Notes: generated from the letters alone by a model not told the origin. DNA of 64,000 nucleotides from Bacteroidales bacterium (GCA_016286055.1 JAEERW010000009.1:28592-92591); one strand, 5' to 3'; numbered from the stretch's first letter, positions 40,663 to 57,232 are shown. Program-made: numbers and translations.

Positions 40663-40774
40663 TATTCAGAATTAACAATTCACAATTCACAATTCACAAT
40701 TCACAATTCACAATTCACAATTCACAATTCAGAATTGACAATTCACAATTGAGAATTCACAATTCATAATTTAA
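40663..40774 (-). repeat. heptanucleotide tandem array 1: (AATTCAC)n on the plus strand = (GTGAATT)n on the minus strand, ~16 units
   Basis: The period was read directly as 7 nt. Seven consecutive perfect AATTCAC units lie between 40677 and 40725, and flanking units vary at the last 3 nt. Confidence 0.9.
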
Positions 40775-40791
40775 TAGCAATAATAATAAAA

Positions 40792-40830
40792 AGGGAGGTG
40801 AAAAATGTGCCGTTCATTTTTCACCTCCCT
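40792..40830 (-). terminator. strong terminator hairpin downstream of the giant T9SS gene
   Basis: A perfect 16-bp inverted repeat AGGGAGGTGAAAAATG / CATTTTTCACCTCCCT has a 7-nt loop. It is followed by a T-rich run on the minus strand. Confidence 0.8.
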
Positions 40831-40862
40831 GTTGTTGTAATATTTGATATGCAGAATTTATA

Positions 40863-43800
40863 CTATTGAATCAACACTCGCTTTACCACGGTCTTCGACG
40901 GGGTTTGCAGCCTTAGGATATACACTCCGGCCTTATCGATATTGAGTTCTACTTTATCGTCCACCACGTTTTTGGTGATAATCACACGTCCTGAAACGGA
41001 GACGAGTGTCATCCTAACCGAACCAGTTTCTTCAATCAGCGAGCCGAGTTCAACTGTAACAGGTCCGTTTGAAGGCACGGGATAAACCTTCACATCTATT
41101 TCTTTATCAACAGTAGTCAATTCAGAAGGCAAAGGAACGATATTGTCGGTATTATTGTCAGTTTCATCAGTGTCTACGTCAAAAGGCACGTTAGAATCGT
41201 CAATTATATCAGGGACAATAATTTCGGGATTGATAATTACCACAGGATCATTTATAGGATCTGGCTGTGGTTGAGGCTGTGGTAAAGGTTCGGGCTCGGG
41301 TTCGGGTTCAGGCTCTACAATAGGTTCAAAAATAAGTTTAAACCTTGAATTGTTGGTGCCAGCAGCCACATCTATCTTGCAAGCAAAACCTTCCGACAAT
41401 TGTGTTGTGGTTTCTTTTTCGGCATCGTACAAGTAAACCTGCGCATTAGCAACCGAGAGTGTGGGCACATATAAGGTGTATGTGCCGGCAGTGGCTGTAG
41501 AGTATCCGAGACGGATTTCTCCGCCATCCTTAACAGAATGTGGCAAGCCGTTGGCTGCAAGAGGCACTTTGTAATCGCTGCCAAACGAATAGAAGAACAA
41601 GGCGTTGTCATTCTGCGACTCTACCATAAATGCATCGTAAGAAGGATCGAACGCCTCGGTGGCATCGTCGGCAAAGTATACAGCGCTCTGATATTTGTCG
41701 CCGCCAGCCGATGTGTTGAATACAATCTTTTCAAAGTTGGCATTACCACTGTTTTTACCAGATTTTATAACTGTGTTAGACTCAGCATGATGACGTGATT
41801 TCTTGGTAAATACTACAGAACCCGCGCCAGAACCAGCACCCTTGGTAGCATGAACGAAGAAACTCTGTCCTGCGGGGATGTAACGGCTACCACCTAGATT
41901 GGTTACGCCCAATCCAACGTTGACTCCAGCTTTTATAGGATAAGCTATCACATTGTCAGATATATTGTCGTGATAGTAGATAACCTCGTCAACATTAATA
42001 AACTCCATTTCATCGGCGTTGATAGCAGAGAGGAACGGGTTGGGAACAAAATTCCAACCGTCGAGCATATCATCGGTGAAACCCATGCCAGGCACTACGG
42101 GGTCGTTGCGGGAGAACGACACTGGCACTACAAAATCTTCTCCACCATGGAGCACGGGGGTACCAGTAAACGACAGAGCATGAGGCGCCAAATAGGGCCA
42201 GCTAATATAGCGGTATGCCTGTGTGAGGTCTGTATTATCAACATCGGATTTGCCAATCATTTCCCATCCGTCAGAGAGGATTTCGGGGTTTTGGTTTTCA
42301 TCTGCCCCTTGATAATGATAATACTCATCTGTTTTGTTCGGTACATCATCGTCAAGATCAGCATCTTCGTTGTAACGGTAGACATAAGCGCCATAAAAGA
42401 ACTGAGAAACATTGAATCCTGAAACAGGAATGCTCAAACGTTCAAACTCGTAACTGCGGACAAAGCGCTGGAATGTTACCTCTCCGATATAATCACCGTA
42501 GTAAATCAGCGAGCCTGCAAGAGGAATAGAATGCCACTTGCCATCATCGTCTTTATCGGCAAGTGTAGAAGAAGTTTCGAGCAGGAGCTGGCTACCATCT
42601 TCAACAACCACATTAGATAATACAGTAAGTTTTGAACCAGATTTAATAGTTAAACTGCTGTTGTCGCCGAGCATCAAATACTTAACCTCAGGCGATTCGT
42701 TCGCATCGTTGATAATGGGATAAAAGCAGTTTTCGCCAATAGTACCCACTACCACAAAGTCGGATGCCGACGGCAAAGTGTTGTCGCTCCAGTTTCCGGG
42801 GAAGAACCAATCATTGCTATGAGTTCCCTCCCATTTGAATGTGAGCACGTTGGTGTGTGCCAGTGTGTAGATGTGGGCATCTTGAGTATGAGGTATCGAC
42901 GGGTCGATAGATGTAACAGTACCAGTATGCTGCGAAGTGGCATGAGGTGCAGAATTAATACGTTTCCACAAGTTATTCTCAAATTTTGTGATAGTAACGT
43001 TAGCCAACTCAGCAGGAGTGTTGGAAACATTACTTGTGGCATCCCAACGAAGTGTGAGACCAAAAGTAGCCGAATTGGTGTTTGGTGTAACAGTCCAATA
43101 TTCCGACTGATCAACGCCTATGATTCCGTCGGTGTACAAAGAGGTGTTGCTACTTTGTGGATAGGGAGAATAATGATAGTGAACAGTAACGAAGCCGCTA
43201 CCAGAACCGTCACCGGGGTTGAAATTGTAAACCACAAATTTGCCAAGACGGTTGTTCTCTTGTTCGGAGCCGTTGTGGTGGCTGCCCACAGGGAATGTCC
43301 AACGACCATTGGTGAGAATCTTCTTGGTGAGCGGACCGTTGATAAAGCGGTCGGCGTTGTAGTTTTGAACGGTTTCGGATTCGTTTTCAGAAGATTTCAC
43401 TATAGTGAACGGATTATCCTTTTCGGTATTGAGCACACCTTTTTCGAATTTTACATGCTCCACAATATTGATGGGAACTTGCACTGTAACGCCATCGAGC
43501 GACTCGTTGGCGATTTCCAAAATATTAATTTCCAACGGATCATGTATGGTGCCATTTTCTGAGTATATTCTTTGATGGTTTTTTCCGCACATTCTAATAA
43601 TACTTACAGCGCCCTCGGTGGGAGCCACAAACGTACCATTGTTGTAAATGAAGTCGCCACAGATATTCCAAGTTTTGCCGTCGGGGTTGTCGATTATCAT
43701 GTCATCATGTCCGGCAGCTTTGAAATAGCCGTTCACTACCAAGTCTTCAGAGCCGAGCATACGCATACCAGAACCCATGAACTCCACATTGTTGAATTTG

Positions 43801-46800
43801 TTACGGCTGATGGGATATTGATAATTGTCGCCATCAAACACGATAGTGCCAGAGCCAGCCTTCACAAAGTCGGCGTATCTTCCACGCGGCAGACCGCCTG
43901 TAAGAGTAATAAGTTTACCAGTACCTGAGAGCACTCCGAAACAGTGTCCTGTAGTAGTTTTAAGATCTACTTCGCCAGGCTCAGTAAGGTCAGACCTCTT
44001 GCCTATGAATGTACGATAGTTTCTTACATTGTTTGTATTATTATCAAAATAAACATTGTGATATACATACACAATGGAATTAGTTTTCATATCATCTGTT
44101 AAGGCTACGGCCTCACCATCTTCATCTGTCTCTACCTCAACGTCGCCGGTAGATGGGTTAAAAACTATCTTGCCGTTTTCTACCTTGGCTATAGTCCATG
44201 TAGATTTTTCACTCCATAAGCCATCTTTCTTACTAACATATACTTGGATTGTTCCAGGAATAGCGCCCTCGCCAAGAGGATTGCAAAGACCAGCTGTATA
44301 GTCGCCAGTAATGGTAGCGTCGTCTTTAAGGTCGAAGTTCAAAGAGGAGGTTTCAAACACAATCACACCCTTGTCGTAAGTGTCGTCGTCGCTGTATTGT
44401 TTGTCCCACTCTGCCTTGCCCTCAAGCAGACGAGCCGGCAAATAATGGTAATCGGGATCATCCGCCTTGTTCATGTCATGGTAGTTGGCACGGTCGTTTT
44501 GGAAAACTATTGCGCCAGCGAAATTGGCGACACCTTGCGAAACCACGTTCCAATAAAAATCAAGTGCGTTGTTTTTAGGTCCATGGGTCAGCCAGTCGGG
44601 ACCATCGTAAGATTCAATAGTGGGATGGTAGGTGCCTATCGGGTAAATGGTGAAAGACGCCTCTTCATTAACATTCTTAAATGCGAAATCTGTTATAAGT
44701 ACTTTCACGGGGGCGTATCTGTTTACTACACCTATAGGCAGCACAATGGTGTCGGTTTCGGTGCCGCTGAATATCTTCTTCACACCATAGTCGGATGTTT
44801 CAAATACTATCATCTTCTCTTTCTGGAAACCATCACCACCCACGGTTTGCACCTCTTTGCCAAGCACAAGGTTGGTAAATTTCATATCCAGAGAGCCCTT
44901 AGTGAGGGTGAGCGCCTTATCTACCAACAATACTGAATTGGTAGGATTGTGTACCTCCGCACCTTTGGCGTTGTTAACAATGAGCTTAGATGTATATCCG
45001 GGTGACGATACTAATACTGCTGGTCCTTCTGAATCACCACTGTTGAGTTCGATACCACCGTCACCAGTGTACGAACCATTGTTGGTATATTTACCACGAA
45101 CGGTTATGGGGAAAGATACTACGCTTTGCGGATCGTCCTCGTCGTAAAGTTCAGCACCTTCGCCGATAAACAACTCATTATCGATAATATGAGGCATCCT
45201 AAACTCCACTTTGTCTTTGGTGTTGGAAATGTCTACATTGTAAAAAGTAATTTTGTTTCCGCTAACCGACTGATAGCCATCACCGCAGAAATCTACTTTG
45301 TTGTTATGATGTGTAAAAGTTCCATAGATAGTAAAGTATTTACCTTTGAAGTTGATATCCTTTCCGTTGGCATCAAGATTGGCATTTGCTTTCAGAGTCA
45401 AATCGCCAAACACATTAAGAGGCAGATTGTTTAACGAAACGTTGGTATTGGGTTCAATATCCACATGAGGCAACGAAGTGTTTGAGTCGAATTTGAATGA
45501 GGATCCGTTGAAAATAAACTTAGAGCCTACATATTCACAGTCAGCGTCATCGGCATTGATTGTAAAATCTGTAGTTTTGCCTGAAGCGCCTTTGAAAGTA
45601 ACGTTAACGCCTTCGACGAAATTGAGCGAACTCGTTTCCGCGATATCCACCTTAGGATTTGTTCCAGCAGTGCCGCACACACCTCCGCCCACTGTAACCA
45701 AAGCATCCGGCGATGTTATATTCCATGTGATAACACCCGTAGTAGACGGCTTAGGACAGAAGTCGGTGCCCACGTTAAATGTGGCTTTGCCGATATTGAG
45801 GATTGTCTGATTAGTTTGCAGATAATAGAAGTGACCCTTATCGTCGAGCGTTGCACCCTCGTTTAGATTGAGCACACCGCCGAGTGTGATACCGGTGCAT
45901 GTGCCTGTAACATTCAGTTTCACACCAGAATTGGCTGTGAGAGTGGCGTTTTCAGGAATTACAAAATCAGCATTGCCACTACTGAGAGGCACTACCTGAC
46001 CACTAACATCGAAGATTACCTCGCCACTCTGCATTACAAGGGGCTTGTCACTGGTAGAGTTGGCACCTGCCAAAGTATTATTATCACCAAAATTAACTTT
46101 CCTGTCGGAAAGTTTTATATAACTACCCGGCTCTTTGTTGATAACCATCTGCTTAACGTTGAAGAGGAAGTTGGTACGGTTAGGATTTACCTGAACCGAA
46201 CCATTCTTATCACCATCAAATTCAAGGACAACATAGTTTTGACCTTTTACAAGATCCAAACCCATTTTTTTATTTTTCAAAAAATCTATGTTTGAAGTTG
46301 AAAGTATACTACCACCAACTTTTAATCTACTATGAGTAGTACGTTCTTGAGCGTCAGATTTAACAGAGATATACCAATCACCGGTTTTTTCAGATTCGTC
46401 AAAGTCTGCACCACCATCTACAACATAATCGTATGTAATATCACCTATAACAACAAAATCAATAGGTGTATCAGGACTAAACTCCATAACACCTTTATCA
46501 ACCCCACCAACACGCAACTCTCCACATGTTACATTTTTGATAGGTCGGAAAGTACACCTACGAAAATTCAATGAATTGCGCACTCTCAATATTTCGGCAT
46601 AGGATATTCTCATTGCATTATTACTAGCATGACCGATAGTTAAATTCGGAAAATATCCATCATGAGAGAAAGAAATAGTTTTGTCGTTAGTATTACCAGT
46701 GTAATACAAAAGATAAAGACTTTCGTCATTTGCATCAAATTTTGAATAATCAGCATTGATATTAAAGGGCGAATTAAAATTATACCTTATATCAATCATA

Positions 46801-49670
46801 CCAATACCATCAAACTCACCAATAGTTAAATTATTAGGAGCATTCACAAACATACACCTACCCAAATCGATTTGACCAGGCACTTGTTCAAAAACAATTT
46901 TACCTATATTATCAACGGTAGCAGTGTTTGTAAACTGCCGCCAGTCACGTCCCTTGATAACCAAAATATCACCCGCATTTGGAGTATGTGTATTGCCATC
47001 CTTATCATACCATACTTGGGTTACTAATTCATTACTACCATTACCATTTTTCGAAGAATACAATACCCTCATTCCTGTAGAATTGCTTTTCAAACCTGCA
47101 GTGTAGTCACCAGAAGATAAATGTGTACTCTCCGAACAATTACTAAAAGATATAATTTTACCGTTAATACCGTAAGTATTTACTAATACTTGATGAGTTT
47201 TCGGTGTGTCATAAAATTTACCAATCGAAGTATAATAACCCCAAAATGATTCAAACAATTCCGTATAATTACCTTGTCCACAATCATCTCCCTGATAAAC
47301 ATTATTCAAGGTTATTCTCTCATATTTTCCATTATTTTTTTTTCTATATCCAGTAACACTAGCTATAGGATCACAATAATTCACATTCTGATATTCAGAA
47401 ACAGGAAATACATTCGACTCAACCCATTTTGTATTTTCAATAAGCGCCAATGATGTAAAAGTGCCATTAATATTAGAAGGAGATACAAAATTCAAAACAA
47501 AATCACAAGGATTTTCATCTTCGGTTTCCACCTTCCAATAACAATTCAAATTAGTGTTATTTTTCAAACACGGATGCTGCTTACCTATGGCACCAATAGT
47601 AATATATTCAGCGTTGAATGTTACACCATCATTTTGTGCGGTAATATACGCCGGTGCATAATACGAATCTGTACCGATATGCCATGTGGCAACGGTAGCA
47701 CCTGCAGAAACACCAGACTGTCTTGGTACATTAAGGCGCAATCCAGCCGAAGCCTTGTCGCCATTGTTTACAAAATAATGGTCGGGACCTCCGTTGGTAC
47801 CCTCTTTCAATGTAATCACATAAGCATTCAAATAGCATTTACCACTATTAAATGTGTAAGTGTTTGCTGTTATGCTGCTACCGAGGTTAACTTTGACTAC
47901 ATTCTGCTCAATAATATCATAGACTCCCGAGCCTGAAATAGTTTTATCGTTACCTGTCATTCGGAGCGTACCAATCATTTCGGCGTCGTTAACTACGTCG
48001 TTATTGGCTGAAACAATGTTGCTGCCGGCGTTGAACTTGCCTGATTTGATAGTGAGCACACCGTCTACGGTAATGTTGTCGGTTAAGATTACCGAATGTG
48101 TACCAGTCTTGTTGATAGTAAGAGTGGGGAACTTGAATTGTCCGTCGGCGATTGACACTGTAGAGTTGGCACTACCGTTGAAGGTAAGCGACTTCATGTT
48201 TGATATCGTACTTCCTGCTTCGGAAGTGAGGTTGCCACCTATCACCACGTCCTTATTGTTGAATCCAAGGCTAAGGTTGTTGCTGATGGTAAGGTCGTTG
48301 AGTATTGTAAGAGCGTCAACATTGAAATTGACTGTTTTTTTGAGAATTAAGTTCCAAAGAGGAACGGAGCACTCGTAGTTGCCGTCGTAAGAGTCTTTAA
48401 CCACAGTACCGCCAGTAACCACCGAGTTTGCGCATTTAAGTCTGAGGTCGCGTGCCACGTTGATAACACCGCCGGAGGTAGCAAAAACAGAGTTGTTAGC
48501 CATCAGTTCAATACGCTCTACATTGACCGTACCGGCAGATTGAGCAAAACGTCCGTAGCCTTCTGTATCAACAATACCTATGATTGTAGAAGTACCACCG
48601 TTAACTTGAAAGTCGCCACCGTTTTTAAGCGCAAGGTTTTGGCACTGAAAGCTGCCGCTTGTGACAGATAGCACACCTTCTAAGTTGATGTTTTTTGATG
48701 TGGTTACCGATCCGCCCGCGATGCTGAGTTCGGCGTTGGCGGGAATGGTGAATTCTGCAGAGTTGACAATTTCGCCGATTGCTACGTTAGAGCCAATAAT
48801 CAGTTTGCCCGATTGCAATGTTATAGGATTAGCGCCGAGCTCGAGCAGGCCTGTGGCTTCAGCCAGAATGTCGGCATAATAAGCAGTGGTGGTTTTCGAC
48901 ACCTTTATATTATTAATCTTTGCTAATTGTTTTAAGGTGAGAGTCTGGTTGCAGTTGTTGGCTGCAAATTCCAAAGTGCCTTTGATGTCGAAATTGCCGT
49001 TGTTGGTAATGTTGCCCTTGGAGGTTACTACCACATCGGCGTTGCTTGTAAACGAAGCATTGTTTACAAGTACATGTTCCACTATGAAATTTTTGGTGGC
49101 AGTAATACTTCCTGAGGTAATACGCAGAGTGCCCAAATGCAATGCTGCGTTGGAGAATGTCACATTACCGCTCTGCAAATTAAACGCGAGGTTTGCATAG
49201 TTGTCTTTGGAGCGTGTCATGGTGAAGTCTCCCACGAGCGATACGTTTCCAGTGTAAAAGTCTTTGCCATCATCCACTTCCGGATATTTGTCGCCTTGAA
49301 GTGTCATGCTGCCAGAGCCAACCATTTCTTTAAACACTGGCAGTGTAGCGTCGTTGTTGATAATAAGCGAAGCGTCGATGTGGATTTTCTTGGCTTTTGC
49401 CTCGCCTTCGTTGGTGATAGTAACCGGTCCTTTGATGTAAACCTCATCAGCTAAGGTGGGAAGCGCATCGGCGGGGAGATCACCTTCGGCATTGAAACTC
49501 CAAGTGGTTAAACTGTTCCATTCGCCACCAGTTGTGGGATTTGAGTAAAATACTTTCCCCTGTGGCTGCTGTGCCTGTGCGGCTGCGCACATAAATAGCA
49601 TGACTATCGCAGCCAATATCTTAATAGGTTTCATAGTTATGTATGTAGTCGTTTTCATGGTTGCTTTCAT
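40863..49670 (-). CDS. giant secreted surface protein (about 2,930 aa) with T9SS C-terminal sorting domain; adhesin-like
   Basis: A single uninterrupted ORF carries an N-terminal signal peptide (...MKPIKILAAIVMLFMCAAAQAQ). The body is Gly/Asn/Thr/Val-rich and beta-helix-like, with a (PE)n/(PQ)n linker. The last ~80 aa (VKVYPVPSNGPVTVELG...GVYILRLQT...VKRVLIQ) match the Por secretion C-terminal domain pattern. The start could be the ATG at 49670, 49658 or 49634. Confidence 0.85.
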   Translation of the reverse strand: MKATMKTTTYITMKPIKILAAIVMLFMCAAAQAQQPQGKVFYSNPTTGGEWNSLTTWSFNAEGDLPADALPTLADEVYIKGPVTITNEGEAKAKKIHIDASLIINNDATLPVFKEMVGSGSMTLQGDKYPEVDDGKDFYTGNVSLVGDFTMTRSKDNYANLAFNLQSGNVTFSNAALHLGTLRITSGSITATKNFIVEHVLVNNASFTSNADVVVTSKGNITNNGNFDIKGTLEFAANNCNQTLTLKQLAKINNIKVSKTTTAYYADILAEATGLLELGANPITLQSGKLIIGSNVAIGEIVNSAEFTIPANAELSIAGGSVTTSKNINLEGVLSVTSGSFQCQNLALKNGGDFQVNGGTSTIIGIVDTEGYGRFAQSAGTVNVERIELMANNSVFATSGGVINVARDLRLKCANSVVTGGTVVKDSYDGNYECSVPLWNLILKKTVNFNVDALTILNDLTISNNLSLGFNNKDVVIGGNLTSEAGSTISNMKSLTFNGSANSTVSIADGQFKFPTLTINKTGTHSVILTDNITVDGVLTIKSGKFNAGSNIVSANNDVVNDAEMIGTLRMTGNDKTISGSGVYDIIEQNVVKVNLGSSITANTYTFNSGKCYLNAYVITLKEGTNGGPDHYFVNNGDKASAGLRLNVPRQSGVSAGATVATWHIGTDSYYAPAYITAQNDGVTFNAEYITIGAIGKQHPCLKNNTNLNCYWKVETEDENPCDFVLNFVSPSNINGTFTSLALIENTKWVESNVFPVSEYQNVNYCDPIASVTGYRKKNNGKYERITLNNVYQGDDCGQGNYTELFESFWGYYTSIGKFYDTPKTHQVLVNTYGINGKIISFSNCSESTHLSSGDYTAGLKSNSTGMRVLYSSKNGNGSNELVTQVWYDKDGNTHTPNAGDILVIKGRDWRQFTNTATVDNIGKIVFEQVPGQIDLGRCMFVNAPNNLTIGEFDGIGMIDIRYNFNSPFNINADYSKFDANDESLYLLYYTGNTNDKTISFSHDGYFPNLTIGHASNNAMRISYAEILRVRNSLNFRRCTFRPIKNVTCGELRVGGVDKGVMEFSPDTPIDFVVIGDITYDYVVDGGADFDESEKTGDWYISVKSDAQERTTHSRLKVGGSILSTSNIDFLKNKKMGLDLVKGQNYVVLEFDGDKNGSVQVNPNRTNFLFNVKQMVINKEPGSYIKLSDRKVNFGDNNTLAGANSTSDKPLVMQSGEVIFDVSGQVVPLSSGNADFVIPENATLTANSGVKLNVTGTCTGITLGGVLNLNEGATLDDKGHFYYLQTNQTILNIGKATFNVGTDFCPKPSTTGVITWNITSPDALVTVGGGVCGTAGTNPKVDIAETSSLNFVEGVNVTFKGASGKTTDFTINADDADCEYVGSKFIFNGSSFKFDSNTSLPHVDIEPNTNVSLNNLPLNVFGDLTLKANANLDANGKDINFKGKYFTIYGTFTHHNNKVDFCGDGYQSVSGNKITFYNVDISNTKDKVEFRMPHIIDNELFIGEGAELYDEDDPQSVVSFPITVRGKYTNNGSYTGDGGIELNSGDSEGPAVLVSSPGYTSKLIVNNAKGAEVHNPTNSVLLVDKALTLTKGSLDMKFTNLVLGKEVQTVGGDGFQKEKMIVFETSDYGVKKIFSGTETDTIVLPIGVVNRYAPVKVLITDFAFKNVNEEASFTIYPIGTYHPTIESYDGPDWLTHGPKNNALDFYWNVVSQGVANFAGAIVFQNDRANYHDMNKADDPDYHYLPARLLEGKAEWDKQYSDDDTYDKGVIVFETSSLNFDLKDDATITGDYTAGLCNPLGEGAIPGTIQVYVSKKDGLWSEKSTWTIAKVENGKIVFNPSTGDVEVETDEDGEAVALTDDMKTNSIVYVYHNVYFDNNTNNVRNYRTFIGKRSDLTEPGEVDLKTTTGHCFGVLSGTGKLITLTGGLPRGRYADFVKAGSGTIVFDGDNYQYPISRNKFNNVEFMGSGMRMLGSEDLVVNGYFKAAGHDDMIIDNPDGKTWNICGDFIYNNGTFVAPTEGAVSIIRMCGKNHQRIYSENGTIHDPLEINILEIANESLDGVTVQVPINIVEHVKFEKGVLNTEKDNPFTIVKSSENESETVQNYNADRFINGPLTKKILTNGRWTFPVGSHHNGSEQENNRLGKFVVYNFNPGDGSGSGFVTVHYHYSPYPQSSNTSLYTDGIIGVDQSEYWTVTPNTNSATFGLTLRWDATSNVSNTPAELANVTITKFENNLWKRINSAPHATSQHTGTVTSIDPSIPHTQDAHIYTLAHTNVLTFKWEGTHSNDWFFPGNWSDNTLPSASDFVVVGTIGENCFYPIINDANESPEVKYLMLGDNSSLTIKSGSKLTVLSNVVVEDGSQLLLETSSTLADKDDDGKWHSIPLAGSLIYYGDYIGEVTFQRFVRSYEFERLSIPVSGFNVSQFFYGAYVYRYNEDADLDDDVPNKTDEYYHYQGADENQNPEILSDGWEMIGKSDVDNTDLTQAYRYISWPYLAPHALSFTGTPVLHGGEDFVVPVSFSRNDPVVPGMGFTDDMLDGWNFVPNPFLSAINADEMEFINVDEVIYYHDNISDNVIAYPIKAGVNVGLGVTNLGGSRYIPAGQSFFVHATKGAGSGAGSVVFTKKSRHHAESNTVIKSGKNSGNANFEKIVFNTSAGGDKYQSAVYFADDATEAFDPSYDAFMVESQNDNALFFYSFGSDYKVPLAANGLPHSVKDGGEIRLGYSTATAGTYTLYVPTLSVANAQVYLYDAEKETTTQLSEGFACKIDVAAGTNNSRFKLIFEPIVEPEPEPEPEPLPQPQPQPDPINDPVVIINPEIIVPDIIDDSNVPFDVDTDETDNNTDNIVPLPSELTTVDKEIDVKVYPVPSNGPVTVELGSLIEETGSVRMTLVSVSGRVIITKNVVDDKVELNIDKAGVYILRLQTPSKTVVKRVLIQ

Positions 49671-50277
49671 TTTGTTAAACACAAGGTTATGAATTTGCAC
49701 AATCTATTCTATTTAATTAAACACAATTTATGTGCAAATTGTTGCACCTGCTGTTTGAATTTTAGGTTAATTGACGCCATCAATACAATGCGTAAAACGC
49801 AGTGTACTAATGGTTGCGCAAAACATACAATTTACCGACGTCAAAAAGCGCCGAACTTTTGTATTTACAGCAAGATATAATCAATTATATTTTTTTAGCC
49901 GGGCAATTATATGCACATATAGCAGGCATAGTGCTTCAAGTGATTGCATCATATACAAAATCAATAATTACCAGTGGTTTGCATAATCAAACAGGTGCAT
50001 TTATAAAACAAAATAATTATCTATACATTGCACCTATTGATTTTATAATAATTTAAGCACATTATAATAATGCAAATGTATGCAACTAATTATTAACATA
50101 TTAGACTATGCCAATAATATAATACAATTAATCAAATAATATATATATCAATATATTGTATAAGGCAAAACGGGCAAAAATGCAATCGGGACTATACATT
50201 GTATTGGCTGAGATAAAAAAAATTAATTTTTTTTTAATATTTTGTACATTTTGCTTGCATATTTAAAATATTTATTT

Positions 50278-50325: not shown

Positions 50326-51045
50326 ATGACAAACGTACAAATCTCAATGTCAGGTGTATCGATACACAGAATGAGAACAGACATGCTCTCAGAGTTAGTA
50401 GCAAAACTTGTAAAGGCTGGCGGAGTGGCCAAAGAAAAGGTGACCAAAGAGATGATTGCCGAACTAAAAAAATCGGCCGCCATATTTACCGACGCCAAAA
50501 CCAAGGAAAAAACCACACAAACCACTGTGCTGTCGCAGCAGTACTTAGACACTCTCAAAAAGCGCTACACCGCGCTATACGGATGCATCACCACATCAAA
50601 AAACAGCGGAATAGAGGCGCAGGGCAAGGCCGCCGCCAAAATTGAGCCCAAATTTGTAAAAATCACCACTGTGTTTGCGCTCAAAAGCGAGGCTATTTCT
50701 AAGCTGGAAAACGTGCTTTCGAGCCTCAAGCAGCTGCCCGCCGAAGATTTTGAAACCATAGGCGCCGCCGCCATACTTGCCGACATGGAGTCGATAGTGG
50801 AGGAATACCGCACCACAATCAATTCGCGCGTGGATGTGAAGGTAGACAAAAGCAAGGCCGTGGTTACAGCACGCGACACGGTGGTAAAAAACATCCAGAA
50901 GCTGCTCACATCAATCAAATACGCCCAAGACTGCCTCGGCGGCAGCGAAACCGAGCTGGTGAAATCGTACAACACCATCTTTGCCGAAACAGCCGCCACC
51001 ATCAAGTTTATGGCTACGGTAAGGGCCAAGAAAAAAGATCAATAA
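50326..51045 (+). CDS. hypothetical all-alpha protein
   Basis: The 239 aa are Lys/Ala/Thr/Glu-rich and predicted helical, with no signal peptide. The gene has its own promoter box and terminator. I recognised no family with confidence. Confidence 0.55.
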   Translation: MTNVQISMSGVSIHRMRTDMLSELVAKLVKAGGVAKEKVTKEMIAELKKSAAIFTDAKTKEKTTQTTVLSQQYLDTLKKRYTALYGCITTSKNSGIEAQGKAAAKIEPKFVKITTVFALKSEAISKLENVLSSLKQLPAEDFETIGAAAILADMESIVEEYRTTINSRVDVKVDKSKAVVTARDTVVKNIQKLLTSIKYAQDCLGGSETELVKSYNTIFAETAATIKFMATVRAKKKDQ

Positions 51046-51116: not shown

Positions 51117-51192
51117 CCGTCTGGAAGACGGTATCTCTGTAACCCCGCACATCGAGCCGCCCCGGCGGCGCTGATGTGCGGGGTTATCTGTG
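51117..51192 (+). repeat. 76-nt GC-rich double-hairpin element, copy A
   Basis: The sequence is CCGTCTggaAGACGG-tatctctg-TAACCCCGCACATC-gagccgccccggcggcgct-GATGTGCGGGGTTA-tctgtg. It is identical to 52294..52369. Confidence 0.9.
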
Positions 51193-51234: not shown

Positions 51235-51690
51235 CTACACCTTTTTATACTTTAAATAATGAAATAACTCATCGATAATGTCGAGTATTTCGGCATCGGT
51301 TACTATACCCCTTACAATATCACCTTTTTTGAGAAACTCTATATTAACGTGTTCGGGTCGATGGTCGGGATCGTTGATATTTATAAGAATTTTGCCGGGT
51401 GATAGATTTTCTATTTCTTTAGCAATGCCCTCCATCCATCCAACAAATGAATATCTTTTCTTTTTTGAGTTTCCATTATACATAGCGGCACGTTGGAGCC
51501 CAGATTCTATAAACCATTGCTTACCCATAAAGTCAAAACGGAGAAAAGATATTCCTTCTTCGTCTTGTCTAAGACCAATAAAAGTATCCTTTGGATAGTT
51601 TGTAATCGGGTCGATGTCTTTGGGCGAAAGCACTATGCGCGACAATTTTTCGTCGCCGTTAACACTATTGGCAAGATAATTATTTTTCAT
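51235..51690 (-). CDS. hypothetical protein (151 aa), downstream gene of a coupled pair
   Basis: Its ATG shares a base with the stop codon of the upstream gene (TAATG). It has no signal peptide or TM segment and contains DPDHRPEHVNIEF. I recognised no family. Confidence 0.6.
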   Translation of the reverse strand: MKNNYLANSVNGDEKLSRIVLSPKDIDPITNYPKDTFIGLRQDEEGISFLRFDFMGKQWFIESGLQRAAMYNGNSKKKRYSFVGWMEGIAKEIENLSPGKILININDPDHRPEHVNIEFLKKGDIVRGIVTDAEILDIIDELFHYLKYKKV

Positions 51691-52172
51691 TAAGCAATGC
51701 TTTCGAGGTGAGACCTTAGGGTTGAAAAGGTGTCTTCGTTGATATTTTCAAACGAATGATGTTCGGTTTCTTGGTCGGGACGTTTTATAAAATACGACAA
51801 TTGGGTGTCGCCGATTTCGCATTTGATTCGACCTTTGTTGGTTTCCAATTTAAGCATCACAGCGCCCATATATGTAGGATATAGGCGAATGAGTTTGGCA
51901 GTGGCAGGGTTGAGTGTGTTGGCAAATTTGTTGACGTTGGCAATGGCGGTTTTGTTGATACATGGAGCGTTTTCTCCGTCCCAACCTTTTTTTAGTTGGC
52001 GGATTTCCTTTAAATCGGTTTGCCACTGTGCAGCAGGTGTTTTTGCTTTTTGTTGCTCGGCATCCTGCGTAGCGAGCAGATTGCGAAAAGCAGTTTTCAC
52101 CTGTTTGGGCTGTGACTGATAAAACGCCCAAAGTACATCTAACGTTGATACTCTTTGTATTGCTGTTGCCAT
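51690..52172 (-). CDS. hypothetical protein (160 aa), upstream gene of a coupled pair
   Basis: It is preceded by a TATCTTTG box and contains KKGWDGENAPCI followed by beta-strand-like segments. I recognised no family. Confidence 0.6.
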   Translation of the reverse strand: MATAIQRVSTLDVLWAFYQSQPKQVKTAFRNLLATQDAEQQKAKTPAAQWQTDLKEIRQLKKGWDGENAPCINKTAIANVNKFANTLNPATAKLIRLYPTYMGAVMLKLETNKGRIKCEIGDTQLSYFIKRPDQETEHHSFENINEDTFSTLRSHLESIA

Positions 52173-52199: not shown

Positions 52200-52207
52200 C
52201 AAAGATA
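52200..52207 (-). promoter_or_regulatory. -7 promoter box TATCTTTG for the two-gene cassette
   Basis: An exact TAnnTTTG on the minus strand lies 28 nt upstream of the ATG at 52172. Confidence 0.5.
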
Positions 52208-52293
52208 ATGAATAATGCATAATGCACAATTATTTTTACCAACAAAAATCCAATTTTACCTTATGCCTCATACATTATTGTAATAAGCCAAAC

Positions 52294-52369
52294 CCGTCTG
52301 GAAGACGGTATCTCTGTAACCCCGCACATCGAGCCGCCCCGGCGGCGCTGATGTGCGGGGTTATCTGTG
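52294..52369 (+). repeat. 76-nt GC-rich double-hairpin element, copy B
   Basis: It matches copy A at 76 of 76 nt and is in the same orientation. Confidence 0.9.
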
Positions 52370-52393
52370 AGATAGGCATCTGCAAGCAGGCAT

Positions 52394-52493
52394 CCGTGCC
52401 TATATAGCCATATGATATCCGTGCCTATATAGCCATATGATATAGTGCCTATATAGCCATATTATATAGTGCCTATATAGCCATATGACATAT
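52394..52493 (+). repeat. four iteron-like tandem direct repeats (24-25 bp)
   Basis: The unit is GTGCCTATATAGCCATATGAYAT(NN), starting at 52396, 52421, 52445 and 52469. Each unit contains the palindrome CTATATAG. A fifth GTGC at 52494 runs into element copy C. Confidence 0.9.
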
Positions 52494-52495
52494 GT

Positions 52496-52541
52496 GCACA
52501 TCGAGCCGCCCCGGCAGCGCTGATGTGCGGGGTTATCTGTG
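52496..52541 (+). repeat. truncated copy C of the GC-rich hairpin element
   Basis: It matches the right ~46 nt of copies A/B with one substitution (CGGCGG to CGGCAG). The small hairpin and half of the left arm are missing. Confidence 0.85.
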
Positions 52542-52545
52542 CCTG

Positions 52546-52657
52546 GCTAATTCTGAATTCTGAATTCTGAATTATGAATTATGAATTATGAATTCTGAAT
52601 TATGAATTATGAATTATGAATTCTGAATTATGAATTATGAATTATGAATTATGAATT
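52546..52657 (+). repeat. heptanucleotide tandem array 2: (CTGAATT/ATGAATT) x ~16
   Basis: The period was read directly as 7 nt. The array starts 5 nt after element copy C and ends in an A-run. Confidence 0.9.
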
Positions 52658-52724
52658 AAAAAAAACCAATAGATTATTGATAAAATCTATTTATCAATCC
52701 ACTTGTGTGTACAAAAAAAAATTC

Positions 52725-52732
52725 TACCTTTG
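52725..52732 (+). promoter_or_regulatory. -7 promoter box TACCTTTG
   Basis: An exact TAnnTTTG lies 30 nt upstream of the ATG at 52762. Confidence 0.5.
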
Positions 52733-52761: not shown

Positions 52762-54993
52762 ATGAAAAAGCTACACCTATTAATGCTATCAGCATTGGTG
52801 TTTGCCGCCACAGCGGGGCAGGCACAAAACAACACAGTAGACCTTTCTACGGTTAACACATCATTCGAAGTTAAAGACGGGCAAATACTCACCGGCACAC
52901 TCGGCATCAACTGCAAAATCGAAATCGCCGACGGTGCCTCCATCACCCTCAATAACGCTATTATCAATGGAAGTGAAGAATTAAACCAGAGCTTAGAGTA
53001 TGCCGGACTCACATGCTTAGGTAACGCCACCATCATCTTGGAAGGCGAAAACACTGTTAAGGGATTTTACGAAAGTGCCGGCATCTTTGTGCCCAAGGGT
53101 GCCACATTAAAGATTCAAGGCTCTGGCAAACTTAATGCTTACGGCAAGACAAATGCTTGCGGCATAGGCGGTGCATTCAACAAAGCCAGCGGCAACATTC
53201 TTATCGAAGGCGGCATTATCAATGCCACAGGTGGAAATTATGCACCAGGTATAGGCGGTGGCAAAAACCTAACAAGCGGCAACATCACCATCAAGGGAGG
53301 CACTGTAACCGCCACAGGTGGCAATAATGCTCCAGGCATAGGCAGCGGAGAAGGCAACAAAGGCGGCAACATCACCATTACTAACACCGTTACTTCTGTA
53401 ACTGCCACCAAAGGCGAATATGCTCCATATTGCATTGGTGTAGCTGGCAGCAAATCTAGCTCTTGCGGCACTATCACACTTGGCGATTTTACCACCGACG
53501 AAAGTATCGAAGGTGAATCTGTAACATTCACTCCGTCATTAAAATCATACAATGTAGCATTTGAAGCCAATGGCGGCTCAGGCGAAATGGCAAGTGTAAC
53601 TCTATTGCCCGGATTCGCAACACACATGCCGCAAAATGCATTTACTCGTTCGGGTTATAAATTTATCGGTTGGAACACCGAAAAAGACGGCTCAGGCACT
53701 TCATACGCCAATGCCGAATTTGTTACCGACATCAGCACACCCGGTAGCACATTAACATTGTATGCTCAATGGTATCAAGGCGATGCTATAGATTTATCTA
53801 CATTAACCGGCAATTACGAAGCTAAAAACAACGATATTCTCACCGGCAAACTCAATGGCAACTACAAAATCACCATTAAAGACGGTGCCACAGTAACACT
53901 CCACGGTGTTACAATTGAAGGAGAAAACGATGACAACTACGCATGGGCAGGCATTACTTGCTTAGGCGATGCCACTATCAATTTAGTAGCTAAAAACATT
54001 GTAAAAGGTTTCGATTCTGAATATCCGGGCATCTTTGTACCTGAAGACAAAACTGTAACCATCAAAGGCACAGGTGCGCTCGATGCAAGCAGCAACGGAG
54101 TAGCTGCCGGCATAGGTGCAGGATGGAGTAAAATACCTTGCGGCAATATCGTCATCGAAAGTGGCACTATCAAAGCTACCGGCGGAAATGGTGCAGCAGG
54201 TATTGGCGGAGGACGTTATAGTTCGTGCGGCGACATCACCATCAAAGGTGGTCAAATTACCGCTATGGGCAAAACTATGGTAGATGTAAGCGGAAGCAAA
54301 GCTGCCGGAATAGGCAAAGGTCAAGATGCTACTTGTTCTAAAGTAACACTCGGCTATACCAAAGCATCCGACTATATTATTGCCAACGGCTATATCGCCG
54401 ACAAAATAGCTATTGACGAAGGCAAGACATTCATTGTAGAAGGCAACTCTACACAAACCTACACCAGCGCCAGCACTATCAACTGGGAAACATTAAACGG
54501 CAAAAAACTCGTTCCCACTCCCTCGGCATACTACACCATCACAGTATCCGACGCGCAGAACGGCACTGTAAAAGCATCACCCTTGAAAGCATTCAACGGC
54601 GAAACTATTACACTCACCACTTATCCCGCCACCGGCTACAAGCTCAGCAAGTATATCGTAAAAGACAATAGCGGCAACGACGTAACCGTAACCGACAACA
54701 AGTTTACCATGCCCGAAAGCAACGTAACAGTAGCAGCCGAATTTGAAGTAGACCCCGGCACACCCGTTAGCAGCACACCTAAAGCTACCGCCAACATCAA
54801 AGTATGGTCGTTTGGCAATATAGTAATCATCGAAGCCGCACCCGACACCAAATACAGCATCATCGACCTCCAAGGACGATTGATAAAATCAGCAACAACA
54901 AAATCTACCCACGAAGAAATCCTAATATCCAAAACAGGCATCTATTTGGTACTTATAGGTGGCAAAACATTCAAAGTATCAGTTGGCAAATAA
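52762..54993 (+). CDS. secreted T9SS cargo protein with two duplicated beta-helix-like modules, a Listeria-Bacteroides (InlB B-type) repeat and a C-terminal sorting domain
   Basis: The signal peptide is MKKLHLLMLSALVFAATAGQAQ. GG(N/S)xAPGIGGG-type turns repeat through the body. YNVAFEANGGSG...GYKFIGWNTEKDGSGTSY...LYAQW matches the Listeria-Bacteroides repeat. The C-terminal ~75 aa (IKVWSF...YSIIDLQGRLI...GIYLVLIGGKTFKV) resemble a T9SS CTD. Confidence 0.8.
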   Translation: MKKLHLLMLSALVFAATAGQAQNNTVDLSTVNTSFEVKDGQILTGTLGINCKIEIADGASITLNNAIINGSEELNQSLEYAGLTCLGNATIILEGENTVKGFYESAGIFVPKGATLKIQGSGKLNAYGKTNACGIGGAFNKASGNILIEGGIINATGGNYAPGIGGGKNLTSGNITIKGGTVTATGGNNAPGIGSGEGNKGGNITITNTVTSVTATKGEYAPYCIGVAGSKSSSCGTITLGDFTTDESIEGESVTFTPSLKSYNVAFEANGGSGEMASVTLLPGFATHMPQNAFTRSGYKFIGWNTEKDGSGTSYANAEFVTDISTPGSTLTLYAQWYQGDAIDLSTLTGNYEAKNNDILTGKLNGNYKITIKDGATVTLHGVTIEGENDDNYAWAGITCLGDATINLVAKNIVKGFDSEYPGIFVPEDKTVTIKGTGALDASSNGVAAGIGAGWSKIPCGNIVIESGTIKATGGNGAAGIGGGRYSSCGDITIKGGQITAMGKTMVDVSGSKAAGIGKGQDATCSKVTLGYTKASDYIIANGYIADKIAIDEGKTFIVEGNSTQTYTSASTINWETLNGKKLVPTPSAYYTITVSDAQNGTVKASPLKAFNGETITLTTYPATGYKLSKYIVKDNSGNDVTVTDNKFTMPESNVTVAAEFEVDPGTPVSSTPKATANIKVWSFGNIVIIEAAPDTKYSIIDLQGRLIKSATTKSTHEEILISKTGIYLVLIGGKTFKVSVGK

Positions 54994-55020: not shown

Positions 55021-55047
55021 GCGGAAGAACCCTCTTCCGCTTTTTTT
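55021..55047 (+). terminator. rho-independent terminator after the 743-aa gene
   Basis: The perfect stem GCGGAAGA / TCTTCCGC has a 4-nt loop and is followed by T7. Confidence 0.8.
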
Positions 55048-55052
55048 ATCCC

Positions 55053-55159
55053 ATCAATCATCAATTTTCAATTTTGAATTATGAATTATGAATTATGAAT
55101 TTTGAATTATGAATTTTGAATTATGAATTTTGAATTATGAATTATGAATTATTAATATT
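55053..55159 (+). repeat. heptanucleotide tandem array 3: (ATGAATT/TTGAATT/TCAATT) x ~15
   Basis: The period was read directly as 7 nt. The array begins 6 nt after the terminator T-run and ends ~20 nt before the nusB -7 box. Confidence 0.9.
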
Positions 55160-55178
55160 GCATTAACATTTCTTTTCA

Positions 55179-55186
55179 TATCTTTG
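55179..55186 (+). promoter_or_regulatory. -7 promoter box TATCTTTG for nusB
   Basis: An exact TAnnTTTG lies 45 nt upstream of the ATG at 55231. Confidence 0.5.
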
Positions 55187-55230: not shown

Positions 55231-56190
55231 ATGATAAGCAGGCGAATACTTAGGATAAAGGTGCTTCAAACCATCTATTCCTACTATCAAAACGACGACG
55301 GCGACATCGCCAAATACGAAAAAGAGTTAGACTTCAGCATCAGCCGGTCATATAGTCTATACTTTTTTTTGATGCAGTTAGCGTTAGACGTATGCGATTA
55401 CGCACAAAACCGAATCGAGAGCAACAGGCAAAAACACCTCGCCACCCAGAGCGACCTCAACCCAAACCTCAAGTTTGTAAACAACAAGCTCATCGCCCAG
55501 TTGAGAGAAAACAAAGACCTGCAAACACATATCGCTTCCTCAAAACTATCGTGGAACAAGCATCCCGAACTAATCAAACGCCTTTTCAAAGATCTTACCG
55601 AAAGTGAGGAATATGCCGCCTATATGGAATCCGACACCTCAACGTATGAAAGCGACAAGAAGATTATTATTTTCTTTTTCTCGCAGATTGTGTGCGAGTG
55701 CGACCTCCTTTACCAAACACTCGAAGAGATGAGCATATACTGGACCGACACCGCAGAATTTATTATCGGCATGGTAATCCGCACTATTGAACGTTACCGC
55801 ATAGGATACGGCAGCGACTACGCTCTAATGACTATGTACAAAAACGAAGAAGACAGCAAATTTGCACGCAAACTGCTCGACTCGGCTGTGGCATCGGGCG
55901 ACGAATACCGCAAATTAATCAACGAATGCACCACAAACTGGGATATCGAACGTATTGCTTTCTTTGATATACTAATTCTCCAGACAGCAGTGGCAGAAAT
56001 TGAGCAATTCCCCGAAATACCGTTAAAAGTTACATTCAACGAGTATATCGAACTTGCCAAAAACTACTCCACATCTCGCAGCTGCACCTTTATCAACGGC
56101 GTGCTCGACAAAATCACACAAGTGCTCCGGCAGCAAAAACGAATAATGAAAGTGGCTGAAACTAATTCACAATTGAAAATTGAAAATTAA
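55231..56190 (+). CDS. nusB: transcription antitermination factor NusB (long Bacteroidetes form)
   Basis: The N-terminus RRILRIKVLQTIYSY and the C-terminal NusB core (ERIAFFDILILQTAVAEI...FNEYIELAKNYST..SCTFINGVLDKI) are present. The conserved nusB-DUF1573-yajC gene order also supports the call. Confidence 0.8.
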   Translation: MISRRILRIKVLQTIYSYYQNDDGDIAKYEKELDFSISRSYSLYFFLMQLALDVCDYAQNRIESNRQKHLATQSDLNPNLKFVNNKLIAQLRENKDLQTHIASSKLSWNKHPELIKRLFKDLTESEEYAAYMESDTSTYESDKKIIIFFFSQIVCECDLLYQTLEEMSIYWTDTAEFIIGMVIRTIERYRIGYGSDYALMTMYKNEEDSKFARKLLDSAVASGDEYRKLINECTTNWDIERIAFFDILILQTAVAEIEQFPEIPLKVTFNEYIELAKNYSTSRSCTFINGVLDKITQVLRQQKRIMKVAETNSQLKIEN

Positions 56191-56205
56191 CAATTCACGA
56201 TTGAT
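56164..56205 (-). repeat. heptanucleotide tandem array 4 (AATTCAC/AATTGAA/AATTAAC, 6 units)
   Basis: The period is 7 nt and the orientation matches array 1. The array overlaps the last 9 codons and the stop codon of nusB. Confidence 0.8.
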
Positions 56206-56219
56206 AAAAAATAACTAAT

Positions 56220-56648: not shown

Positions 56649-56670
56649 ACACTAATAATATAAAATAATA

Positions 56671-57003
56671 ATGAACACATTAACAATACTTACAGCCTCA
56701 GCCGGCGCAGGCGCAGGCGAAGCACCCCAAGGCATGAACTTCTCATTCATAATCATGATAGTGGCAATGATTGCCGTATTCTATTTCTTTATGATACGTC
56801 CCCAGCAAAAACGCCAGAAAGAACTCCAGCAGTTTCGCGACGAGCTCAAGAAAGGCGACCGCATTGTAACCATCGGCGGAATACACGGCGTTGTTAAATC
56901 GATGAACGAAACTACAATAATCGTTTCGATATCCGAAGGCGTTGACGTATGTTTCGAAAAATCGGCAATTATCAAAGACAATTCCGACATGCAGCAGCAG
57001 TAG
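56671..57003 (+). CDS. yajC: preprotein translocase subunit YajC
   Basis: FFMIRPQQKRQKE...KKGDRIVTIGGIHGVV is the YajC signature, and the protein is ~110 aa. Confidence 0.9.
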   Translation: MNTLTILTASAGAGAGEAPQGMNFSFIIMIVAMIAVFYFFMIRPQQKRQKELQQFRDELKKGDRIVTIGGIHGVVKSMNETTIIVSISEGVDVCFEKSAIIKDNSDMQQQ

Positions 57004-57031
57004 ATAATGCCCAATGCACAATAATTTTTTT

Positions 57032-57067
57032 GTAGGGACGCGGCGTGCCACGTCCCTACATTGTTTT
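57032..57067 (+). terminator. GC-rich hairpin/terminator after yajC
   Basis: The stem GTAGGGACG / CGTCCCTAC has a 10-nt GC-rich loop and is followed by ATTGTTTT. Confidence 0.6.
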
Positions 57068-57110
57068 ATAATGACGCGGCGTGCCACGTCCCTACATTGT
57101 TTTTTAGGGA
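57037..57110 (+). repeat. tandem duplication (36-nt period) of the right part of the yajC hairpin
   Basis: GACGCGGCGTGCCACGTCCCTACATTGTTTT occurs at 57037..57067 and again, identically, at 57073..57103. The second copy can pair TCCCTA (57089-94) with TAGGGA (57105-10). Confidence 0.85.
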
Positions 57111-57232
57111 TAATTATGAATTAACAATTAACAATTATGAATTCTGAATTATGAATTATGAATTCTGAATTATGAATTGCGAATTATGAATTACAATTAG
57201 TACTATGAATTATAAATTTTGCATTACGCATT
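57109..57232 (+). repeat. heptanucleotide tandem array 5: (ATGAATT/CTGAATT/GCGAATT/AACAATT...) x ~17, degenerate at the 3' end
   Basis: The period was read directly as 7 nt, with one interruption near 57193-57204. Confidence 0.85.

Follow-up and report, generated by a model that had tools for sequence, protein, structure and literature searches.

Among the tandem repeats of prokaryotic intergenic DNA, those with seven-nucleotide units are described as the most abundant class, with polymerase slippage proposed as their origin and their function given as unknown (Mrazek 2007, via PMC4679880 and PMC4692102; bioRxiv 10.1101/309039, the SPADE survey of repeats). The present analysis concerns five such arrays, mostly of NTGAATT-type units, on a 64,000-nucleotide stretch from an uncultured Bacteroidales bacterium (GCA_016286055.1 JAEERW010000009.1:28592-92591). 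The whole 64 kb stretch is referred to below as the window, and array positions are counted on it. Like the long simple sequence repeats (LSSR) of earlier surveys, the window arrays consist of head-to-tail 7-nt units, are intergenic, occur where period 7 dominates and change length in 7-nt steps between close strains. They differ in their host, an uncultured Bacteroidales, whereas the survey accounts highlight Burkholderia, Xanthomonas, Cyanobacteria and Actinobacteria. As far as we found, neither the NTGAATT unit family with its AATT core nor a Bacteroidales host has been specifically described in the literature.

Several other heptamer systems can be compared. TAACTGA repeats occur in Beggiatoaceae, Cyanobacteria and some Bacteroidetes (MacGregor 2015, PMC4679880). 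Together with the short tandemly repeated repetitive (STRR) sequences of cyanobacteria, they resemble the window arrays in a similar phyletic pattern, mixed heptamer families within one intergenic region, stop-containing units, 7-nt insertions and deletions between strains, and absence from the orthologous spacers of close relatives (PMC4679880). The unit itself is another one, and in BOGUAY (Cand. "Maribeggiatoa" Orange Guaymas) the repeats number 2-6 copies and stand forward, just upstream of starts, whereas the window arrays are long (6-17 units), stop-proximal or post-terminator, and without orientation preference. The GGGAATC heptamers of Xanthomonas and the GGGGAYT heptamers of Nostoc behave similarly, but they are G-rich and can form G-quadruplexes while the window arrays are AT-rich (PMC4692102); in Nostoc, a regulatory role for heptamers has been suggested, not established (bioRxiv 10.1101/2022.06.06.494920). 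The best functional precedent is the TTTTGAT heptads at ctxAB of Vibrio cholerae, which are also AT-rich 7-nt units upstream of a promoter with strain-dependent copy number; they are few, lie immediately upstream of the promoter and are reported there as regulator-binding sites (bioRxiv 10.1101/2021.05.14.444153). Two of the five window arrays, in contrast, have no downstream promoter, and the arrays are not conserved. The units of the cyanobacterial STRR, CCCCAGT, TTGGTCA and CAACAGT, differ from NTGAATT, TGCATTA and TTTCAAC in the Bacteroidales host, which places the present arrays outside a family defined by STRR units in a cyanobacterial genome. Small dispersed hairpin repeats are reportedly inserted in the heptamer arrays of Nostoc punctiforme (Elhai et al. 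2008). Hairpins and heptamer arrays share intergenic regions in the window as well, but the window hairpins are mostly unrelated terminators, and no array is interrupted by the single hairpin element that is repeated.

The window arrays are probably heptanucleotide microsatellites of the LSSR kind, a class that includes the cyanobacterial STRR, made and remodelled by slippage and tolerated in unconstrained sites. Each defining feature of this class that was looked for was found, while those of a mobile module and of a conserved binding array were not. The arrays are listed here with the results of Tandem Repeats Finder (TRF) in brackets.

40658..40774, minus strand: array 1, some 16 heptamers, most of them AATTCAC as read on the plus strand and GTGAATT on the minus (40664-40771, 15.4 copies, score 167)
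52546..52658, plus strand: array 2, 16 units including 10 ATGAATT and 5 CTGAATT, with a 28-nt higher-order pattern (52549-52658, 15.7 copies, score 185)
55052..55159, plus strand: array 3, about 15 ATGAATT and TTGAATT units, with degenerate CATCAAT/TTTCAAT units at the left edge (55070-55165, 12.4 copies, score 139-157, 14-nt higher order)
56164..56205, no strand assigned: array 4, six units, namely AATTCAC, AATTGAA twice, AATTAAC, AATTCAC and GATTGAT (56164-56204, weak, period 7/21)
57109..57192, plus strand: variable part of array 5, about 12 in-register units of ATGAATT, CTGAATT, AACAATT and GCGAATT (57112-57226, 16.7 copies, 77% matches)
57193..57232, plus strand: out-of-register heptamer-like stretch, part of a conserved block upstream of a lysozyme-like gene and not of the variable array

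Both the TRF scores and the pattern counts show runs of head-to-tail 7-nt units longer than chance. Four of the arrays score 118-185 over the 64 kb window, in which TRF reported no period-7 array of comparable score outside the five. The pattern GAATTNNGAATTNNGAATT, allowing up to two mismatches, matched the window 75 times against 0.62 expected, and all 75/75 matches fall inside the five arrays. The preliminary description was therefore right that the arrays are real and, by both TRF and pattern search, that they are confined to its 40.6-57.3 kb region. Within that region, arrays occupy 5/7 intergenic gaps compared with 0/25 elsewhere (Fisher p ~1e-4, post hoc). The AATT core is in register in 15/16 units of array 1, 16/16 of array 2, 13/15 of array 3, 5/6 of array 4 and 12/17 of array 5. 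Two corrections to the description are that array 4 is short and that array 5 keeps register across 57112-57192 only, the 57193-57232 block beyond it being conserved in the related contigs L121, L130, L132 and L133. The units do create GAATTC sites, as had been claimed, with 7/15 of the window total lying in arrays.

How the arrays behave can be seen at the same junctions in relatives. Contigs carrying the same or related YajC, NusB or PAS/SpoIIE proteins were compared. Their DNA identity to the window is ~97% for L121/L122, 90% for L130, 81% for L133 and 74.5% for L135; for L137 DNA similarity is undetectable and NusB is 65% identical. Across these relatives the arrays occupy fixed intergenic junctions yet are hypervariable. 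The window allele of array 2 has 110 bp, that of L121/L124/L125 47 bp and that of L122/L123 40 bp; L130/L131 lack the array. Over 20,333 bp, L121 and L122 are 99.93% identical, with 8 mismatches and one gap, and that sole gap is a single ATGAATT unit in array 2. Arrays 1, 3 and 5 vary as well. The length polymorphism that the preliminary description proposed to look for among strains is therefore present, in unit multiples and down to a one-unit step.

Array 3 fills the gap between a terminator T-run and a conserved nusB promoter block, written AATTATTAATATTGCATTAACATT...TAT(A/C)TTTGC and also AATTATTAATATTGCATTAAC...TAT(A/C)TTTGC, that is common to all relatives. Window and L121 share identical flanks and edges at this array but have amplified different internal units (TTTGAAT/TATGAAT versus TTTCAAC). 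In its place L130 has about 5 TGCATTA units and L133 has zero units, the T-run abutting the conserved block directly, while L135 has about 11 units despite different upstream genes. One suggestion of the preliminary description, that the arrays are slippage-prone spacers altering the distance from terminator to promoter, is supported at arrays 3 and 5, which stand between a T-run and a promoter-proximal block and vary in length among relatives. Array 4 is absent in L130/L131 (~90%). The unit mix of array 5 differs in L121 and L132, and this array is degenerate in L130 and absent in L133. No arrays are left in L133 (~81%) and none are found in L137, and such array-less relatives retain gene order and promoter block. 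The units at orthologous arrays are not conserved: ATGAATT/TTGAATT, TTTCAAC, TGCATTA, GTCAATT and CAATTGA/CAGTTGA take each other's place, or there is no array, in contrast to what would be seen at iteron-like sites.

Array 1, between convergent genes, starts immediately beyond the TGA (40655-40657) that ends the PAS/SpoIIE phosphatase gene. It spans 108 bp in the window and ~66 bp, with another unit mix, in a relative at 98% protein identity. Relatives at 87% and 83% protein identity lack both array 1 and its hairpin, and there the convergent genes abut or overlap; a relative at 77% protein identity lacks the array and has a different hairpin. At its 3' end the PAS/SpoIIE gene carries two units of a heptamer proto-repeat, GGATTTA GGATTTA(A) (window 40640-40657; L186, L188), and does so in relatives without array 1 as well. 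Sited where array 1 starts in the window, this proto-repeat may plausibly have seeded the array. Across the orthologous loci, arrays arise from a proto-repeat, amplify differently where they stand and are lost, which is the course expected of a slippage-driven microsatellite and not of a conserved cis-element.

Array 4 is partly coding: its units supply the final 9 codons and stop codon of nusB, then continue into the 29-nt spacer between nusB and DUF1573. Between relatives, the C-terminal tails of NusB begin to differ at precisely the array. Array units in the window and in L121 encode the tail TNSQLKIEN followed by the stop; NusB of L135 (10372-10456) stops at the TGA of the first CAATTGA unit; and the tails in L130 and L137 are unrelated and non-repeat. 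Since the NusB terminus is encoded or terminated by heptamers in some lineages and by unrelated sequence in others (window 56164-56190; L135 10372-10456; L133 10943-10980), the arrays rewrite a protein terminus.

Stop codons are also favored neighbors of arrays elsewhere, as judged with a crude open reading frame (ORF) caller on which the stop/start-distance and orientation statistics rest. An array lies within 6 nt (<=6 nt) of the stop in 26/91 stop-facing sides versus 7.6 expected under uniform placement (3.4x), compared with 7 versus 5.1 expected for the same distance from the start in start-facing sides. Between tandem genes, the array is nearer the upstream stop in 38/53 pairs and nearer the downstream start in 15, and the first unit often contains the stop codon (TGA-ATT..., TAA-TTC...). 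Array orientation bears no relation to gene direction (26 '++' versus 27 '--'), and a tie between orientation and transcription was rejected on this count. The abutment of arrays to stop codons is a modest new regularity, the simplest reading of which is tolerance. Because an array gives a stop in every frame, a 7-nt insertion would be harmless at a dispensable tail; elsewhere in a gene it would shift the frame.

The preliminary description had proposed that the arrays form 'GC-rich hairpin then array' modules that partition the region into transcription units. The hairpins and associated repeat elements are as follows.

40792..40830, no strand assigned: perfect 16-bp terminator-like hairpin between the convergent PAS/SpoIIE and 2945-aa T9SS-tail genes, -27.4 kcal/mol
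55021..55047, plus strand: intrinsic-terminator-like hairpin and T-run after the Flg_new gene, -19.6 kcal/mol, conserved in L121 and L130
57024..57107, plus strand: terminator hairpin of yajC, present as 2 tandem copies of a 36-nt unit, -38.3 kcal/mol
51117..51192, plus strand: copy A of a double-hairpin element (76 nt) that matches copy B at 100% identity, -48 kcal/mol
52294..52369, plus strand: copy B of the 76-nt element
52494..52541, plus strand: truncated copy C of the 76-nt element, left arm missing, 64% over 76 nt, -19.4 versus -35.8 kcal/mol
52396..52497, plus strand: 24-nt tandem repeat GTGCCTATATAGCCATATGATATA x4.2, belonging to a composite module of which relatives have 1-3 tandem copies

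The hairpins beside the arrays are real (-27.4, -19.6, -38.3 and -35.8 kcal/mol), with the reservation that copy C is truncated and weaker at -19.4. The module does not hold up. No sequence similarity connects the hairpins at 40792, 55021, 57031 and 52494; of these four array-side hairpins, two are ordinary T-run terminators, one is a terminator shared by convergent genes, with 16 pairs on both strands and a better T-rich tail on the minus strand, and one is the truncated 76-nt element. In the 56 Bacteroidota array loci among the matches listed in the collection scan described below, strong folds (<= -12 kcal/mol) occurred in 23% of flanks on the 5' side and 26% on the 3' side, against 21% of control flanks after ordinary stop codons, so that hairpins beside these arrays are neither enriched nor asymmetric between 5' and 3' sides, and the search for the same module in other Bacteroidota returned no hairpin-array association. 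No flanking 10-mer was shared between the arrays of different genomes among the at least 120 loci. A repeated unit of hairpin plus array was rejected on these grounds. The hairpin-then-array pattern of the window is a coincidence; arrays and terminators both occupy gene 3' flanks. Partitioning of transcription units is not supported either: array 4 lies inside an operon, and array 1 has a stop codon on one side and the shared convergent terminator on the other; the claim is further undercut by the array-less relatives, with their unchanged gene order and promoter block. Self-structure as a general property of the arrays was likewise rejected: only arrays 1 and 2, which are GAATTC-rich, fold more stably than shuffled sequence, and arrays 3 and 5 do not.

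The arrays belong to a wider distribution in which the period, and not the unit, is shared. A scan of a genome collection with the pattern (GAATTNT)4GAATT returned at least 120 loci, for which taxon counts are indicative only: among the matches listed, 56 are from Bacteroidota (Bacteroidales, Chitinophagales, Flavobacteriales and Cytophagales), 33 from Cyanobacteria and 31 from other groups, comprising Lentisphaerae, Planctomycetota, Chloroflexota, the candidate phyla radiation (CPR), a few Gammaproteobacteria, with a Beggiatoaceae metagenome-assembled genome (MAG; L076) within them, and one Bacillota. TTTTGAA-type units are the commonest among those matches. In 865 kb from other array-bearing genomes, with the AATT-type arrays for which they were selected set aside, period 7 accounts for 35/45 tandem arrays with periods 4-15, the remainder having period 6 (1), 8 (1), 9 (5), 12 (2) and 14 (1). 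Array-bearing loci also carry unrelated heptamers such as AATGCCC, ACTCCTG, AGGGGCG and TAACTGA, some of them GC-rich. The common property is the 7-nt period rather than the AATT unit, a point in favor of a process-level cause over a sequence-specific binder. As a separate observation, (GAATTNT)n is present in 45 viral contigs from IMG/VR (L141-L185), including several giant-virus MAGs (GVMAG), some with 2-3 arrays.

Turning to the genes around the arrays, identities were taken from Pfam assignments. TAnnTTTG is the -7 promoter consensus of Bacteroidetes, and promoters are inferred from matches to it.

38291-40657, plus strand: PAS/SpoIIE phosphatase gene
40863-49700, minus strand: 2945-aa protein with a type IX secretion system (T9SS) sorting tail, after array 1 and the bidirectional hairpin
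50326-51045, plus strand: hypothetical 239-aa gene
51235-51690 and 51690-52172, minus strand: hypothetical 151-aa and 160-aa genes, no Pfam hit
52205..52230, no strand assigned: mini-array (ATAATGC) x3.7, overlapping a TAnnTTTG-type box TATCTTTG (52207-52200, minus) upstream of the 160-aa gene
52725..52732, plus strand: inferred -7 box TACCTTTG, a TAnnTTTG match, for the gene at 52762
52762-54993, plus strand: Flg_new/beta-helix surface protein gene (Listeria-Bacteroides-repeat), followed by the terminator and array 3
55179..55186, plus strand: inferred nusB -7 box TATCTTTG, inside the conserved block that all relatives share, as far out as 74% DNA identity
55231-56190: nusB, followed by DUF1573, yajC, the duplicated terminator, array 5 and a lysozyme-like gene
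57004..57030, plus strand: degenerate heptamers ATAATGC CCAATGC ACAATAA, immediately following the stop of yajC

Four arrays are wholly intergenic, and array 4 overlaps only the last 27 nt of nusB. The spacers that house them are convergent (array 1), divergent (array 2), tandem after a terminator (arrays 3 and 5) and operon-internal (array 4, in nusB-DUF1573-yajC, where the 29-nt spacer has no terminator or -7 box; in particular, no TAnnTTTG box lies between array 4 and DUF1573). The divergent spacer is 590 bp long, repeat-rich and ends in array 2, from the end of which it is 67 nt to the inferred -7 box of the Flg_new/beta-helix gene. Arrays 2, 3 and 5 are upstream of inferred TAnnTTTG boxes, array 2 preceding the surface-protein gene, and arrays 1 and 4 are without such a promoter. 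The two degenerate heptamer stretches at the edges of these spacers are 23/27 identical, in agreement with the preliminary description, and the place of the one at 57004-57030 is taken by a (TAATGCA)n array in L130/L131. The only Rfam match in the window is the Bacteroidales small signal recognition particle (SRP) RNA RF04183 (12504-12610, minus, 83.4 bits); no covariance-model match was obtained at the arrays or their flanks, and the window contains no tRNA or tmRNA. The host is taken to be an uncultured Bacteroidales because of this small SRP RNA and because the NusB homologues are named only as Bacteroidales MAGs.

The surroundings show repeat instability of other kinds. The 36-nt yajC terminator unit has 1 copy in L130, 2 in the window and L132, and 3 in L121. 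A composite module before the Flg_new gene, made up of the hairpin element, then AGACAGGCATCTGCAAGCAGGCATCC, then (GTGCCTATATAGCCATATGATATA)n, has one copy in L131 (7300-7460), three in L130 (7010-7480) and about two in the window (52294-52541) and L121, the second truncated; it forms a second, larger layer of repeat instability upstream of a surface-protein gene. The identical copies A and B bracket a 1.1-kb cassette of the 151-aa and 160-aa genes. In L130/L131 there is a single 76-nt element and the cassette is missing, which looks like an insertion or deletion bounded by the direct repeats of the element. An exact search for the core of the 76-nt hairpin found no match in the fetched loci, relatives differing by 1-2 nt in that core; the element was found in relatives by reading orthologous spacers. 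The Flg_new/beta-helix protein differs in length among close relatives (743, 772, 746 and 739 aa), and its gene has internal 87-nt repeats and is missing in L133 and L135. Matches to sigma-70-like -35/-10 elements run through 40672-40784, 52571-52655, 55078-55148 and 57113-57196 (TTCACA-17-CACAAT; on the opposite strand TTCATA-17-CATAAT). They number 88 versus 42 expected in the region, an excess largely from the arrays; since the consensus is not that of Bacteroidetes promoters, they were not used as evidence. Such matches are probably irrelevant in Bacteroidetes and could matter in other array-bearing phyla.

With slippage as the mechanism and near-neutrality as the setting, both of which we infer, the history of an array might begin with a chance two-unit proto-repeat in AT-rich, weakly constrained DNA, typically at or after a stop codon, after the T-run of a terminator or upstream of a promoter block. 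The array would then expand, contract and re-homogenise in place by one or several 7-nt units per step, through replication slippage or unequal recombination. The higher-order periods of 14 nt in array 3 and 28 nt in array 2 point to multi-unit duplications. NTGAATT units contain TGA in each of the three frames, and some reverse units contain TAA; an array can therefore stand in for a dispensable C-terminal tail and provide its stop. The sequence would persist because its insertion is tolerated and not because it is needed, and the adjacent hairpins are the usual terminators of those intergenic regions, or else belong to a local repeat element.

Several observations sit uneasily with slippage under near-neutrality. 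The 7-nt preference is itself unexplained, and the local clustering in the window (5/7 versus 0/25 gaps, post hoc) is not accounted for by a purely neutral model. The skew toward Bacteroidota and Cyanobacteria (56 and 33, with 1 Bacillota, among the at least 120 listed) suggests a lineage-specific factor, and the abutment to stop codons could reflect function instead of tolerance. Eight L121-type contigs have identical arrays 3 and 5, so the arrays do not change in every sample. Finally, arrays flank nusB again in L135, at 74.5% DNA identity, which could mean recurrent selection there. The 7-nt preference, the phyletic skew and the anchoring at stops could together reflect arrays that are not passive. 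They would then be the product of a dedicated molecular process that works in 7-nt steps, or a functional gene-end or intercistronic element that combines all-frame stops with a ribosome landing pad of unstructured A/U-rich sequence and is confined to phyla in which translation mostly starts without Shine-Dalgarno sequences. We give this only a slim chance; if true, changes in copy number would tune the expression of neighboring genes.

Among specific functional roles, the arrays could act as contingency promoter spacers of the phase or rheostat kind, the number of units re-phasing or re-spacing upstream sites and tuning expression of surface-related genes, namely the Flg_new gene, the lysozyme-like gene and the nusB operon. 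The ctxAB heptads, and other promoter-upstream repeat tracts such as the TAAA type at nadA, are precedents. The position of arrays 2, 3 and 5 relative to inferred TAnnTTTG boxes would suit this role, as would the difference in array 2, a single unit when near-identical strains are compared and 9-10 units across the species, the presence of the giant T9SS protein and the Listeria-Bacteroides-repeat surface protein among the neighbors, and the effect of heptad number on PctxAB activity reported in bioRxiv 10.1101/2021.05.14.444153. Even so, it is a rather unlikely explanation: array 2 does not separate promoter elements but stops 67 nt upstream of the -7 box, no promoter follows arrays 1 and 4, nusB and yajC have housekeeping functions, the same promoter block is kept by relatives without arrays, no upstream regulator site is known, and arrays elsewhere are stop-proximal rather than start-proximal (38 versus 15) without preferred orientation. 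A role in RNA seems distinctly improbable. Here the arrays, as A/U-rich, unstructured tracts with stops in all frames, would serve as fail-safe termination or as S1-dependent landing pads for ribosomes in phyla that rarely use Shine-Dalgarno sequences. Bacteroidota and Cyanobacteria, on which the distribution is centered among the matches listed, have low Shine-Dalgarno usage. The 3.4-fold excess of abutted stop codons, the place of array 4 in a 29-nt intercistronic spacer and the failure of arrays 3 and 5 to fold better than shuffled sequence are all consistent with such an element, and a comparable proposal has been made for the TAACTGA repeats (PMC4679880). However, arrays 3 and 5 are downstream of terminators and probably outside the upstream mRNA, both orientations are equally frequent, some reverse units (AATTCAC, AATTCAA) contain no stop, close relatives have lost their arrays, and 15 units far exceed what the role would need.

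The remaining alternatives place the function in DNA. In one, a form of the protein-binding array raised by the preliminary description, the AATT minor groove would be recognized once per 7 bp, by a regulatory or nucleoid-associated protein acting in insulation or local chromosome organisation. The near-invariance of the AATT core within each array, the clustering in a 17-kb region and the recurrence of NTGAATT across many phyla speak for it. Orthologous arrays, however, switch to units lacking AATT (TTTCAAC, TGCATTA, CAGTTGA), genomes with AATT arrays also have GC-rich heptamer arrays, relatives do without arrays and no candidate protein was identified, making a sequence-specific binding array very unlikely. 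Slighter still is the chance that mobile units of hairpin plus array are at work, resembling miniature inverted-repeat transposable elements (MITE) or repetitive extragenic palindromic (REP) sequences, or that arrays are insertion targets for small hairpin elements. The three copies of the 76-nt element near array 2, two of them identical and bracketing a cassette that relatives lack, speak for the idea, as do the small hairpin repeats reported inside Nostoc heptamer arrays. It is already largely refuted for the arrays by the unrelated sequences of the four array-side hairpins, the distance of copies A and B from any long array, the lack of common flanks across the at least 120 loci, the ordinary frequency of hairpins elsewhere, and the occurrence of the 76-nt element in L130/L131 without an array. 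The slippage-made microsatellite remains the preferred reading, and the earlier interpretation as a whole is partly supported.

The locus offers a clean, well-controlled example of heptamer arrays, in which the same junctions can be compared at 99.9%, 97%, 90%, 81% and 74% DNA identity. There are practical consequences as well. The arrays break short-read assemblies, and contigs end inside them (L140); most contigs carrying the PAS/SpoIIE gene are only 3-7 kb long, and arrays appear to break metagenome assemblies. They also make spurious sigma-70-like promoter matches and can alter the annotated C-termini of proteins. For uncultured Bacteroidales, the arrays could serve as strain-typing markers.

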